Translations under genes and position numbers: made by a program
NCBI GenBank assembly: GCA_026397135.1
Contig: JAPLVL010000020.1
Coordinates: 17,679 to 59,025 of the forward strand
Origin: Candidatus Berkelbacteria bacterium
Lineage (GTDB): Bacteria; Patescibacteriota; UBA1384; XYA2-FULL-43-10; 1-14-0-10-43-13
Length of the DNA stretch: 41,347 bases
Direction of reading: 5' to 3'
Notes under the pieces: generated by a model
Database searches by the model: none
Told to the model about the DNA's origin: nothing
Seen by the model: the letters and a program-made list of their open reading frames with translations, nothing else
In this document: positions 12,668 to 18,350 of the stretch, piece by piece
Layout: each line of letters starts with the position of its first letter
Numbering within the stretch: the stretch's first letter is position 1

Positions 12668-13447
12668 ATGCGATACCTTTTGCTTTTGCTGGCCATATTT
12701 TGGCTGATACCAATCCGAGCCAAAGATTTGGCGGTTACGAAACAGGAAGTCCAAATTGATCCCGGCAAATCCGCTGTTTACTGCGGCGAAGCCAACGGAC
12801 GCTTGATTTGGATCAAGGAGAAAGTTGCAACTCAAAGATCTGCGATTTCACCAAGGCTCACCTACGAAGAGGGTGGACTTATCTTCGGTCAAATCAATCC
12901 GGAAGGCAACAACCCTCTGCTTACTCAGATCGGCTACGCTTTTTCCGACATCGACCCGATGATCGATGGCAAGGAAATTTGTCTCTTCTACAAGAAAAAG
13001 CAAGCTCAATCTGGATCGTCCTTTTACGCCGCCAGAATCTACCACTGGCAAGCCAGCGAGAAAATCTACAAGTATTACTGGACTTATTGCAGCAAGACCG
13101 CCCTAGCGAACAATAATTACCGCAATGCCATCTTGGCTGAAATCCGAAATGCTGATCATAATTTCATCCGAGAGTCTCTGAAAATCGCCGATTTTATTGC
13201 TGCGATTCGTCTGGGTCACTGGAGCGACGTTCGAAACAAGCTCAACACGCAAAATGGCATGACGATTGATCGAATGAAGAATATAGACGACTCAATCACC
13301 TATTTACCGCCACCCCGTGACTGGGAACGCCACTCCGTGTCTGAAGACAGTCGGAAATTTATTTTCATTTCTGCCTTTGACGGCAAGACATGGTATCTCG
13401 TCATCAAAAACGACAAGATTACCGTCTATCAAGCCGGTCGCCAATAA
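12668..13447 (+). CDS. Hypothetical secreted protein (paralog of 13553-14302)
   Basis: Signal peptide; SD GAGGGGG; shared GKEIC.F and W...EK.Y..YW.Y motifs. Confidence 0.8.
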   Translation: MRYLLLLLAIFWLIPIRAKDLAVTKQEVQIDPGKSAVYCGEANGRLIWIKEKVATQRSAISPRLTYEEGGLIFGQINPEGNNPLLTQIGYAFSDIDPMIDGKEICLFYKKKQAQSGSSFYAARIYHWQASEKIYKYYWTYCSKTALANNNYRNAILAEIRNADHNFIRESLKIADFIAAIRLGHWSDVRNKLNTQNGMTIDRMKNIDDSITYLPPPRDWERHSVSEDSRKFIFISAFDGKTWYLVIKNDKITVYQAGRQ

Positions 13448-13552: not shown

Positions 13553-14302
13553 ATGCGCTGGTTTATCGGATGTCTCCTGCTTTTCTTCGCAAGCGTTTGC
13601 TTCGGAAAGCCGACAGTCAAAATCTCGACTTCCGACATAAACGGAGACGGTGAAATCGAATCGATTTCCGAAATCACCGACACCGCCACAATGGGACTCG
13701 AGGTCAGCAAAGGTGGGAAGAACCTCTTTGCTCGTTACTATCTTCCAGTCGAAAATTCCGGCTTCAAGATAGAAGACCTTGATCTGAACTTTGGTGGTAA
13801 GGAAATCTGCGCTTTCCTACCATCCTGGAAACAAGATACGACAGTATCAGCTGGCCAGCTCAAATACCAAGTCGAGGTTAGCCGCTGGAATCAAAAAGAA
13901 AAACGCTACACTCTCTATTGGGTGTACGAGACACACAAACCGTACAAAGTCGGCGATTTCGACAATATTCTGGTCCAGATGAATGCCGACATCAACCGTT
14001 TTTACGACTCGATGATTCCGGTCTGGAAATTTCGCCAGCTTATAGCAGACAACAAGTGGGATGGTGTCGAGAAGCAAATCGGCAAAACAGCCGGCTTCGA
14101 CACAACCATCGCCAAAATTATGCTGAACCGCGCCGCGTTCGTCTGCATGCCCGATAGCAAAGACTGGCGGATGTTTTCCTCTGATAGCTCACCCGAAGTC
14201 ATCTTCTACAGTTTTGAAACCTCCGGCGAGACCTACACTGTCGCTGTCATTCCGGACAAAGACGGCACGAAATTCGCCTTCAAGATCGGCGGCCCCAATT
14301 AA
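13553..14302 (+). CDS. Hypothetical secreted protein with a DINGDG (FG-GAP/Ca-binding-like) motif
   Basis: Signal peptide; SD GGAGG; terminator at 14310-14342. Confidence 0.8.
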   Translation: MRWFIGCLLLFFASVCFGKPTVKISTSDINGDGEIESISEITDTATMGLEVSKGGKNLFARYYLPVENSGFKIEDLDLNFGGKEICAFLPSWKQDTTVSAGQLKYQVEVSRWNQKEKRYTLYWVYETHKPYKVGDFDNILVQMNADINRFYDSMIPVWKFRQLIADNKWDGVEKQIGKTAGFDTTIAKIMLNRAAFVCMPDSKDWRMFSSDSSPEVIFYSFETSGETYTVAVIPDKDGTKFAFKIGGPN

Positions 14303-15498: not shown

Positions 15499-16135
15499 CA
15501 AAAAATCCCATTCAATTTCTTGTTTGGGATTTTTTGGGTTGGGCAAAAACGATTTGAAGGACTATTCGAGCAATATGTTTTTTAATATATGACTCGGCCT
15601 TACCGTTTGTGCCCTCTTTAAGAGGTTTTGATTATTTGTCCGCCTTGAGATATACATCCCGAAGAAGACGAATCGCTGCCTCTTACTGTCCACTTTGTTA
15701 TAGTGGTTATTTGGAATATCTTTGGTTTTAGGCTATTCGAGTGTTGTTTGTTTTAATTCAAACTCGGCTAAACCGAAATTTATTCTCTGAAACTTTTCTT
15801 CATTTTCCTTAATAAATTTGCATTTAGTTTAAAGATAAATTGATAGGTTTCTTTTGTTTTTATTCTTGTCCTTTGGCAAGAATGAGATGGGGAGGAATTT
15901 AATTGCCGATTCACATTTAGTGACTTTGCAATATTGTATAATCACATATTTTATAGATTATTATTTCCTCCTAAGAAAAGTGGGGAGCTTTTCTAATTCC
16001 ATCTCGCTCTTGCCAAGACGTTAAAAAACGTCTACCGAAGGGTGACGTATTAACTCGTTTCCCTCCGAGGTGCTTGCTGCAAAAACTATTATTTGTCCTG
16101 CAGCTGTTAAATTGTTAAATTACTTTTTTAATGAT
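15499..16135 (-). ncRNA. Candidate large (~630 nt) structured non-coding RNA
   Basis: TTGACA-17-TACAAT at 16170-16142; 18-bp long-range helix 15999-16016/15873-15890; duplicated internal motifs; terminal hairpin 15499-15536; no ORF of 60 aa or more. Confidence 0.65.
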
Positions 16136-16141
16136 TAAATC

Positions 16142-16207
16142 ATTGTACCAATTACAACACTTCTTGTCAATAGAGTTGTACCCCCACTTGACACTCTGTG
16201 TTGTAAT
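16142..16207 (-). promoter_or_regulatory. Sigma70 promoter overlapped by a 20-bp imperfect inverted repeat
   Basis: ATTACAACACTTCTTGTCAA (16151-16170) vs TTGACACTCTGTGTTGTAAT (16188-16207), 16/20 complementary. Confidence 0.65.
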
Positions 16208-16884: not shown

Positions 16885-17316
16885 CTACTCTTCCTTATCG
16901 TACTGACCAAATGAATTTCTATTTTCGTACTGACCCTTTTTCGGCATTAGTTTGACTGAGATTTTAAACTTTCTAGCAATTCCACTCGCGTCCGGAATCT
17001 CATCAGTATTGTTTTCTTGATAATATTGTGTCAACTCGGCAGAGAGAATATCACGAAGTGTTGTAATCTCGTCAGTATTCGATTTGATGTTGGCCAAAAC
17101 TTCTTGATTTGGTCCCTTACCCAAGATTTCGTCCTTGATTTGTTTTCTTTTCTGAGTTGCGCCTTTGACCTCCTCAGTTGCCTGAAGATAAGTCTCCTCA
17201 TTTTCAAGTTCACCCTTCAGCATCTCCTTCGAGATTCTAACTTCCTCACTCAGCTTCTCCATCTGGTCAATTCTTTTTTGAATTGTTGGCAAATCCATCT
17301 CTCTCCTTTTCTCCAA
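16885..17316 (-). CDS. Conserved-looking coiled-coil hypothetical protein (start probably ATG 17298)
   Basis: Heptad-rich charged sequence; AGGAG SD before MDLPT; co-oriented with rlmN. Confidence 0.75.
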   Translation of the reverse strand: MEKRREMDLPTIQKRIDQMEKLSEEVRISKEMLKGELENEETYLQATEEVKGATQKRKQIKDEILGKGPNQEVLANIKSNTDEITTLRDILSAELTQYYQENNTDEIPDASGIARKFKISVKLMPKKGQYENRNSFGQYDKEE

Positions 17317-17336: not shown

Positions 17337-18350
17337 TTAATTCTTACTGCCTAATTCTTGCCTTCCTGCCAGCTGCCCGCATGCGCCGGCTATTTCCTCG
17401 CCGAGACTTACACGCAAGGTGACAGGGATGCGATTCTCCAGCAAGACAGTCTTGAATCTCTCAATCTGGTTCCGACTACTGGCCCGAAATCCCGATCCTG
17501 GAATTTCGTTGAAAGATATCAAATTGACCAAGGCAAGCCTGCCTTTCAGAAGCTCAGCTAATTTGTAGGCATGATCTATACTATCATTCTCACCCTTTAA
17601 CATCAAATATTCATAGGTCACCTTCTTGTTCGTCTTGGACACAAATTGATCCAGGACATGCATCAACTCCGAGAGAGGATTAACCTTTGCAATCGGCATT
17701 AATTTTTCTCTCAATTTCTGGTCTGCCGCGTGCAGACTGATCGCCAATGTTGTGCCGGTATCAGACTCAATGAATTGCAAAAGCGGTTTAATGGGGCCGC
17801 AGGTCGAAACGGTAATATGACGACGACCCAGATTGAAGTAATCAGGATTGTTTAATTCACCAATCGCAAATAAAACATTTTGTAGATTAAACAACGGTTC
17901 GCCCATGCCCATGAAAACAACATTCGTCAGCTTTCCGCCTTTGGCTTTTAACTTCCGACTTACAAATAAAACCTGTGAAACAATTTCCCAGGCAGTCAAA
18001 TTGCGTTTGAATCCAATCTGACCAGTAGCGCAAAAAACGCAGCCGGAAGCACAGCCGACCTGAGATGAAACGCAGACAGTATTGCGACCATCGCGAAATT
18101 GCAACAGGACAGTTTCAATAACACAGCCGTCAACCAATACTAGCGCCCACTTGGTCGAACCGTCTTTGGAGACCTGTTCTGATTTGGTTGTGAAGGGTAC
18201 AAGATTGGTCTCTTTCTCAATCATTCCCCTCTCGTATTTGGAAAAAGTGGTCAAGTCCTCCGCCCTTTCGACCAGGTTCACAAAAATGGCAGTCCTAAGC
18301 TGCTTTTGGCGAAGTGATGTCAAATTTTTCAAATATTCATAAAAATCCAC
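17337..18350 (-). CDS. rlmN: 23S rRNA m2A2503 radical SAM methyltransferase RlmN
   Basis: TVCVSSQVGCASGCVFCATG, NVVFMGMGEP, LAISLHA, IAGACGQL. Confidence 0.95.
   Translation of the reverse strand: MDFYEYLKNLTSLRQKQLRTAIFVNLVERAEDLTTFSKYERGMIEKETNLVPFTTKSEQVSKDGSTKWALVLVDGCVIETVLLQFRDGRNTVCVSSQVGCASGCVFCATGQIGFKRNLTAWEIVSQVLFVSRKLKAKGGKLTNVVFMGMGEPLFNLQNVLFAIGELNNPDYFNLGRRHITVSTCGPIKPLLQFIESDTGTTLAISLHAADQKLREKLMPIAKVNPLSELMHVLDQFVSKTNKKVTYEYLMLKGENDSIDHAYKLAELLKGRLALVNLISFNEIPGSGFRASSRNQIERFKTVLLENRIPVTLRVSLGEEIAGACGQLAGRQELGSKN

Follow-up and report, generated by a model that had tools for sequence, protein, structure and literature searches.

A stretch of 41,347 nucleotides (nt) from a Candidatus Berkelbacteria bacterium (contig JAPLVL010000020.1 of assembly GCA_026397135.1) was analysed; it is called the window here, and all coordinates are positions in it. 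On the minus strand lies a region made up of a promoter, a transcript and an intrinsic terminator (Table 1), which a preliminary description, drawn from the letters of the DNA, had read as an unannotated large structured non-coding RNA (ncRNA). This reading is supported by the comparison with Rfam, by homologues in other genomes, by covariation and by the lack of a decayed gene, and the region is almost certainly a genuine gene for a structured ncRNA whose family is new and absent from Rfam 15. The RNA comprises a short leader, a 5' domain built around a three-way junction, a variable A-rich middle and a 3' core domain, part of which is present in a second, degenerate copy.

Table 1. Features of the RNA gene, in 5' to 3' order on the minus strand (MFE, minimum free energy)
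Feature	Position	Strand	Basis or remark
Whole RNA gene: promoter, ~636-nt transcript, terminator	15499..16170	minus	sequence; full-length nhmmer matches in other genomes; fold z -8.46
Sigma-70-type promoter	16142..16170	minus	-35 TTGACA 16165-16170; 17-nt spacer; TG-extended -10 TGGTACAAT 16142-16150
Hairpin GCUGCAGG...UUGCAGC with one GGACAAAUAAU copy	16076..16104	minus	MFE fold; 11-mer repeat
Leader hairpin CCUCGGAGGG...CCCUUCGG	16035..16070	minus	MFE fold; bears Shine-Dalgarno-like GGAGGG box 16061-16066
Hairpin AGACGUU-UUUU-AACGUCU	16016..16033	minus	relatives have here a terminator-like GC-rich hairpin + U6-8
5' domain, three-way junction	15873..16016	minus	MFE fold; relatives' folds; covariation
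P1	15999-16016 with 15873-15890	minus	18-bp helix
P2 hairpin, C-rich loop	15974-15994	minus	stem varies between genomes
P3	15963-15971 with 15891-15898	minus	encloses P3a and P3b
P3a, loop UAUAAAAUAUGU (UAAAAUA)	15939-15960	minus	within P3
P3b, optional	15902-15932	minus	within P3
Degenerate tandem copy of 3' core	15707..15800	minus	model R1 matches here a second time (28 bits, E 7.8e-4); direct repeats D2, D3
Module copy 1, UAG-C-CGAGU...ACUCG-AAUA-G-C-CUA	15729-15770	minus	within degenerate core copy
Core 3' domain	15534..15689	minus	RNAalifold; covariance models; covariation
H1, GUAAGAGG with CCUCUUA	15679-15686 with 15619-15625	minus	replaces local hairpin CCUCUUAAAGAGG of single-sequence fold
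3-bp helix GAU/AUC (family-wide GAY with RUC)	inside 3' core	minus	
H2, long hairpin	15639-15668	minus	
H3, GGGCA.AAG with CUU.UGCCC	15606-15614 with 15541-15549	minus	encloses module copy 2
Module copy 2 with AAUA bulge and AUUAAAA loop	15557-15601	minus	inside H3
Intrinsic terminator, 12-bp hairpin AAAAAAUCCCAA...UUGAAUGGGAUUUUUU + U-run	15500..15535	minus	MFE fold

Boundaries, coding capacity and single-sequence fold

The promoter, described earlier as a near-consensus TTGACA-17-TACAAT, matches the consensus at 11 of 12 positions and has a TG preceding the -10 element, and the transcript should start near 16135. In 44 of the 47 loci listed, the core domain is preceded by a TTGACA...TAnnAT site. 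The terminal 12-bp hairpin with its U-tract, likewise part of the preliminary description, is present in the MFE fold; a simple terminator scan did not report it. Aligned relatives have a hairpin and a U-run at the equivalent terminal position and, in the family labelled f4 and in distant families, the U-run directly follows the H3 helix itself.

The region had been said to lack a usable open reading frame (ORF), and indeed none of at least 60 amino acids (aa) exists in 15499-16135 on either strand, the longest measuring 56, 44, 43, 40 and 38 aa. None of six small ORFs tested from the RNA region has a Pfam match at E<=1, and no conserved ORF follows the GGAGG box of the leader in the eight f4 RNAs, in which the frame behind the box is 0 to 53 codons long and three of the eight lack a start codon. 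The RNA is thus without coding capacity in this test, and none of the three lines of evidence gives a sign of a decayed protein gene.

Folding is far more stable than expected from composition. The MFE of 642 nt is -173.3 kcal/mol, against -111.6 +/- 7.3 in 20 dinucleotide shuffles (z = -8.46). All hairpins named in the preliminary description occur in this fold, including the 18-bp P1 helix, but one of them, the local hairpin CCUCUUAAAGAGG, is not conserved: its CCUCUUA belongs to the long-range helix H1, where it pairs with GUAAGAGG 55 nt upstream, a pairing supported by covariation. Another, the GCUGCA/UGCAGC hairpin, is an insertion private to this genome and is missing in the other 13 of 14 aligned sequences. 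The wobble pairs had been taken to favour the minus strand, in agreement with G-U pairs which are kept in many sequences (U-G in 14/14 at one H2 pair, G-U in 10/16 at one P1 pair). The repeats within the sequence are real as well. GGACAAATAAT has exactly two occurrences, where 0.04 are expected, and the two module copies are true direct repeats (15562-15605 and 15733-15775, at a spacing of 170-171).

Conserved structure and comparison with known RNAs

The 3' core is the best-supported part of the structure. RNAalifold, applied to a plain MAFFT alignment of nine sequences, gave 43 pairs, 18 of them with compensatory changes. When 41 RNAs were aligned to the covariance model, 91.2% of the cells paired, compared with 64.6 in shuffled and at most 49.1 in slid alignments, and 43 of 43 pairs had changes on both sides; these alignments are fitted to the model, which favours pairing. 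Relatives form H1 from other letters, such as AUGAGGG/CCCUCAU or GUGAGAG/CUCUCAC. The module hairpin enclosed by H3 combines an A-rich apical loop with a CG-flanked AWUA bulge, following the consensus G-C-A-G, C, CGRRN...NYYCG, AWUA bulge, G, U, CUGC, with an apical region of the AUAAUUAAAAUA type.

The duplication of this module, as first described, is genuine but extends further than had been thought. Model R1 of the 3' domain also matches a further copy, more weakly, directly upstream of the core; the duplicated module is accordingly part of a larger tandem duplication that takes in most of this domain. Comparable secondary R1 matches were found in four further RNAs of family f1 (L055, L004, L050 and L049). 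The core is therefore duplicated in tandem in part of family f1, and the second module copy is confined to that part.

For the 5' domain, the alignment was made with MAFFT and not fitted to the structure; 87.0% of its cells pair, against 80.8 after shuffling and at most 51.9 after sliding. Compensatory changes affect 16 of 34 pairs, seven of them in P1, and the shape of the domain is adopted independently by all 16 relatives when folded singly. With a hidden Markov model, the domain was found in 18 of 20 loci of family f1, in 5/5 of f2 and in the single locus of f3. The f4 RNAs carry in its place no more than a simpler helix, similar in sequence type and formed by UUGGCAAGG with CCUUGCCAA. The three-way-junction domain is an addition within this order. 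Covariation-supported secondary structure, as looked for in a large orphan structured ncRNA, is hence found in both domains.

These results bear directly on the view that there is no RNA gene here at all, only a decayed protein gene, a remnant of a mobile element or chance structure in an A/T-rich spacer. The linkers are in fact A-rich and poorly conserved. Against this view stand the compensatory changes in 43/43 and 16/34 pairs, the single copy at a syntenic place, the length of 473 to 879 nt with varied indels, the lack of a conserved ORF behind the GGAGG box and the lack of Pfam matches. Covariation and conservation refute it, and we give it next to no credence.

With regard to known RNAs, the 4227 families of Rfam 15, with OLE, ROOL, GOLLD, raiA, HEARO, T-box and riboswitches among them, yielded only two tRNAs at gathering score, both elsewhere in the window. 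A permissive scan of the region returned 11 matches, none with E under 0.86 and none reaching the gathering score. No hallmark of transfer-messenger RNA (tmRNA), RNase P RNA or signal recognition particle (SRP) RNA had been seen in the preliminary description, and the matching Rfam models fail in the region. Each of the universal RNAs was considered in turn and rejected. The genome has its own RNase P RNA on another contig (C13:3332-3672, 150.7 bits). The region has no match to tmRNA, which has tRNA-like ends and a tag reading frame and is recognised by RF00023 or ARAGORN, and relatives carry a separate tmRNA as well as the studied RNA. An SRP RNA would bear the helix-8 motif and need an Ffh protein to bind; the models RF00169 and RF01854 do not match, no SRP_SPB or SRP54 domain was found in the genome, and tblastn and a motif scan were negative. 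For 6S RNA, there is no match to RF00013. 6S RNA is a rod of about 180-200 nt with a large central bubble and paired 5' and 3' ends; the studied RNA consists of separate domains and does not have this shape.

A very divergent form of one of these four RNAs has in its favour that tmRNA, SRP RNA and 6S RNA were not found in this genome. On the other hand, RNase P RNA lies elsewhere in the genome, tmRNA occupies other loci in relatives, no SRP54-type GTPase was found which an SRP RNA could serve, and the multi-domain fold is unlike 6S. This reading is largely refuted and appears highly improbable.

Two side observations concern the universal RNAs themselves. Both tmRNA and its partner SmpB are absent from this 98%-complete assembly; a tmRNA scoring above the cut-off was detected elsewhere in 35 of 44 order genomes, and SmpB in 142 of 151 sampled genomes of the class. 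Because relatives have both, the absence is best explained by an assembly gap, probably one unassembled locus. The second observation regards the SRP. Its RNA (RF00169) was found in none of 151 class genomes, and the SRP54 GTPase domain gave one full match among them, on a 3.5-kb contig of 50% G+C which is maybe foreign, and none in the 151 genomes of a phylum sample at E<=1e-20. In this genome the SRP_SPB search, tblastn with the Ffh-like protein of that one match and the motif scan were all negative, and SecY is present. Literature searches on SRP absence in the group returned nothing; it may be known elsewhere or reflect a limit of the tools.

Distribution and genomic context

Homologues occur in genomes of the candidate phyla radiation (CPR) type, and blastn and nhmmer gave collinear matches in 13 of 13 fetched loci. 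From the -35 box to the terminator the relatives are between 473 and 879 nt long and differ by indels of widely varying size. They keep the promoter nearly letter for letter, a UUUAAU start region, the two conserved domains and a variable A-rich middle. A long-range pairing of the conserved 5' UUUAAU with the module loop AAUUAAA was assessed visually and rejected, the changes being mismatched across genomes.

The distribution was mapped with three covariance models of the 3' domain, R1 (seed of nine sequences), R2 (36) and R3 (41, including distant ones), whose E-values are rough; the class and phylum figures that follow come from samples. R1 detected the RNA in 22 of 23 genomes of the family, the one miss being 71% complete, and in 41 of 44 genomes of the order, including all 33 of high quality. 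In the class sample of 151 genomes, the matches rose from 37 with R1 to 45 with R2 and 67 with R3 (59 of the 114 high-quality ones). R3 matched 6/151 genomes in the phylum sample; these are six of the seven class members in it, and the result of 0/144 for genomes of other classes doubles as a specificity control for this model. As far as the models reach, the family is confined to one class of Patescibacteria (CPR). Public records of this group are named Patescibacteria group bacterium, uncultured Candidatus Saccharibacteria bacterium and Candidatus Berkelbacteria bacterium. A strict scan of genome contigs for the module pattern gave only 10 loci, two of them, in Methylotenera records, probably by chance; the pattern is too strict for mapping the extent of the family.

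Throughout the order there is one strong copy per genome. A second core copy at another locus was found in six genomes of family f34 (G100, G109, G122, G127, G137 and G145), in one case between the RNase J and FtsK genes on the opposite strand, and the RNA has paralogues in this one family. The RNAs of distant families are shorter, about 290 to 560 nt from promoter to terminator, and have only the core and the leader box in common. Single-copy presence in 41/44 order genomes and recognition in 67/151 sampled class genomes make the RNA look like a housekeeping part and not a mobile oddity, and it probably does a basic job in the cell.

The usual site of the gene is between dnaX-dnaB and pcrA, and the order dnaX, dnaB, RNA, pcrA is kept in distant families too. 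Within about 4 kb of the RNA in 33 loci, DnaB was found upstream in 19 and DnaX in 16; downstream, a G5-domain protein was found in 10 and PcrA/UvrD in 16, on the same strand and within the fetched flank. Such an arrangement could also be produced by a cis-acting leader or attenuator of pcrA; the RNA would in that case be a long 5' untranslated region, with terminators that regulate the helicase gene ancestrally following it. In line with this, pcrA is directly next in 6/8 f4 loci and also in distant families (L067, L068, L069), the f4 and distant RNAs have the H3 hairpin with its U-run just ahead of pcrA, and the leader holds a terminator-like hairpin. A cis-regulatory leader would always be found upstream of one gene family on the same strand, which is not what the loci display. 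The next downstream ORF varies in family and lies on the opposite strand in 6/33 loci; in this window it is an unrelated gene for a 349-aa protein with a GGAGG-type ribosome-binding site of its own. Moreover, the second copies of f34 are at unrelated places, the terminal terminator is conserved everywhere, and in families f28 and f7 pcrA abuts dnaB without the RNA. The opposite-strand or varying next ORFs, together with the f34 copies, imply that the RNA is not the leader of one gene, and a role in controlling pcrA is considered unlikely.

Several neighbouring genes deserve mention in their own right. At 16885-17316 (minus strand) lies a gene for a 143-aa coiled-coil-like protein without a family, which adjoins the RNA in 8 of 14 loci and is usually preceded by a hypothetical protein of about 170 aa (clusters 4 and 5, eight loci each of the 33). 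A radical SAM gene (17337-18350, minus strand) is placed between dnaB and the RNA, as in three other f1 loci (cluster 10, four loci). On the other side, the adjacent plus-strand ORFs at 12668-13447 and 13553-14302 encode proteins of 259 and 249 aa, neither with a Pfam family; they share one similarity cluster and are thus tandem paralogues. DnaB, 468 aa long here, reaches about 875-880 aa in two distant genomes (L044:1087-3714 and L048:820-3462), where an intein or other insertion is likely.

Leader, proposed function and significance

The leader of the RNA carries a Shine-Dalgarno-like box which recurs across families. Among 21 leaders from families f1-f3, 17 contain GGAGGG or GRGGGG, and in f4 and distant families a GGAGG-like box occurs no more than 120 nt from the start in 19 of 21 RNAs. 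In all eight f4 RNAs the box is in the loop of UUCGC-GGAGGG-GCGAA at +30 and is followed by GCUCCUC...GAGGAG and a U-run (U7). Of the 21 f1-f3 leaders, 14 combine the box with a U5+ run close to the leader end, the run counted in this genome being only a hairpin loop, and the leader hairpins of these families bear CCUCC-like letters in the 5' strand or loop. Single-sequence folds of the leaders fall into two states: in one, the box sits in its own small hairpin and the terminator is formed; in the other, the box is paired to CCUCC and the terminator is not formed. Mutually exclusive terminator and antiterminator pairings are predicted in this way in the leaders of relatives and are degenerate in this genome, whose hairpin at 16016-16033 has no trailing U-run. 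They would act on the RNA's own body, with the pairing of GGAGGG and CCUCC blocking early termination, and the leader may set the amount of full-length RNA. Attenuation leaders likewise pair a terminator-like hairpin with an upstream box complementary to its 5' strand, but what lies downstream here is the body of the same ncRNA and not an ORF.

The same box allows a different explanation, in which the RNA is a base-pairing or ribosome-directed regulator: GGAGGG, as a Shine-Dalgarno mimic, and the C-rich P2 loop, as an anti-Shine-Dalgarno mimic, would attach to 16S rRNA or to ribosome-binding sites in mRNAs. The recurrence of the box in 17/21 and 19/21 RNAs and its fixed place at +30 in the f4 loop in 8/8 agree with this, as do the CCC or CCCC read by eye in the P2 loop of 15 of 16 sequences and the use of GGAGG-type ribosome-binding sites by this genome, for instance upstream of the 349-aa gene. 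However, the GGAGGG and CCUCC-like boxes can pair internally, and the best-conserved part of the RNA, the A/U-rich module hairpin, has no role in such a regulator. RNAs of the RsaE/RoxS type also have a C-rich hairpin loop able to pair with G-rich ribosome-binding sites, yet they are about 100 nt long and act by base pairing only, while the C-rich loop here is a small part of a multi-domain RNA which also bears the complementary GGAGGG. A regulator of this kind is doubtful, although it retains some small weight.

Distinctly unlikely, in our view, is a further elaboration in which the RNA links how much of it is made to the condition of the translation machinery, the full-length body being a class-specific ribonucleoprotein or RNA-only assembly. 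The loop-displayed GGAGGG and the CCUCC-bearing terminator would then act as an attenuator that responds to free 30S subunits or to another factor binding CCUCC or GGAGG. If this were true, the RNA would serve a basic function in a phylum without a signal recognition particle, as far as the samples show.

The size and kind of the RNA had suggested a comparison with OLE, ROOL and GOLLD. That likeness holds, but membership does not, since there is no similarity to any of the three. OLE RNA of Firmicutes, at about 600 nt, resembles the studied RNA in having its own transcription unit, many covarying helices, highly conserved unpaired nucleotides and a lineage-restricted occurrence, and it works as a ribonucleoprotein (PMC9723947, PMC10898510); it differs in sequence, structure and phylum, no recognised partner genes were found here, and the studied RNA varies much more in length (about 290 to 880 nt). 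ROOL and GOLLD, often linked to phages or plasmids and variable in copy number, are also large orphan structured bacterial RNAs, in contrast to which the studied RNA has no Rfam match to them and is chromosomal, syntenic and single-copy. The raiA motif RNA is described (PMC10861870, PMC11706538) as a widespread, strongly transcribed orphan structured ncRNA; it shares with the studied RNA the possession of an own promoter and terminator, but there is no Rfam match, phyla and fold are different, and the studied RNA is larger. The literature searched contained no paper linking Patescibacteria, Saccharibacteria or the CPR with a large structured ncRNA.

An RNA-only machine, either a ribozyme or a self-assembling ornate RNA like the multimers of ROOL, GOLLD and OLE, would account for the large size, the multi-helix junctions, the modular growth and the invariant unpaired nucleotides (GGGCAUAAG, CGAUUAGUC and A-rich loops). 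The formation of homo-oligomers is reported for ROOL, GOLLD and OLE (PMC12286853). Set against this are the absence of similarity to these three RNAs and a class-wide core of only about 150 nt, and we consider an RNA-only machine very unlikely.

A role as a protein-binding scaffold is quite conceivable, although we stop somewhat short of calling it probable. The RNA would act in trans as a ribonucleoprotein scaffold in which the conserved module hairpin is the proposed protein-binding site, and the duplication would supply a second site. A protein-titrating RNA with repeated binding sites, as envisaged in the preliminary description, is possible. Sponges of the CsrB/RsmZ type similarly have a repeated hairpin module which could bind several protein copies; they have many GGA loops, whereas one or two A/U-rich modules are present here. 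Taken as a whole, a stand-alone structured ncRNA gene, whose product would act in trans, bind protein and perhaps be tuned by its leader, is the best explanation and a reasonably probable one.

Transcription of the gene is weakly hinted at by three of four lake metatranscriptome runs, all from one study, in which five contig pieces are identical to parts of 15598-15862. The features that would mark an independent transcription unit are a conserved promoter and terminator, and the direct transcript data consist of these partial contigs. The stretch was also found in two freshwater metagenome DNA runs, one perhaps its origin.

Besides the fitted 3'-core alignments and the rough, sample-based figures of distribution mentioned above, a number of observations weigh against a leader-tuned, protein-binding RNA with a basic cellular role. 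The metatranscriptome contigs cover part of the RNA, without ends or flanks, and neither strand nor level can be read from them; the identity spans 30-153 nt, and four of the five pieces continue into unlike sequence, a pattern that could reflect either related strains whose variable regions differ or chimeric assembly of A-rich sequence. DNA can, moreover, occur in RNA libraries. The lack of a U-run after the leader hairpin makes the attenuator idea inapplicable in its simple form to this genome. No partner protein was found, the f1 neighbours (16885-17316 and its upstream neighbour) having no Pfam, NCBIfam or Atlas assignment and not occurring beyond family f1. Furthermore, R3 matched 0/19 genomes of f28 and 0/11 of f13, and in five genomes of families f28, f13 and f7 it gave no match even at E<=1; the dnaB and pcrA ORFs abut in f28 and f7, with no RNA at that place. 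These absences mean that the class has no universal need of the RNA. Family f25 has a 660-nt ORF-free gap at the dnaB-pcrA place, with a 23.8-bit match when filters are off.

To our knowledge, few large bacterial RNAs combine an intricate fold with an unknown function, OLE, ROOL, GOLLD, raiA and HEARO among them, and such large orphan RNAs have repeatedly opened new biology. The RNA described here belongs to the CPR, about whose basic cell biology little is known. The steps by which this RNA grew can be followed, beginning with a form of about 290 nt and passing through the added junction domain to the internal duplication, and its clean absence from two families in which dnaB abuts pcrA provides a natural contrast for finding its partners or function. 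A leader with a mimic of a ribosome-binding site before a terminator is an unusual device, as it would control an ncRNA.

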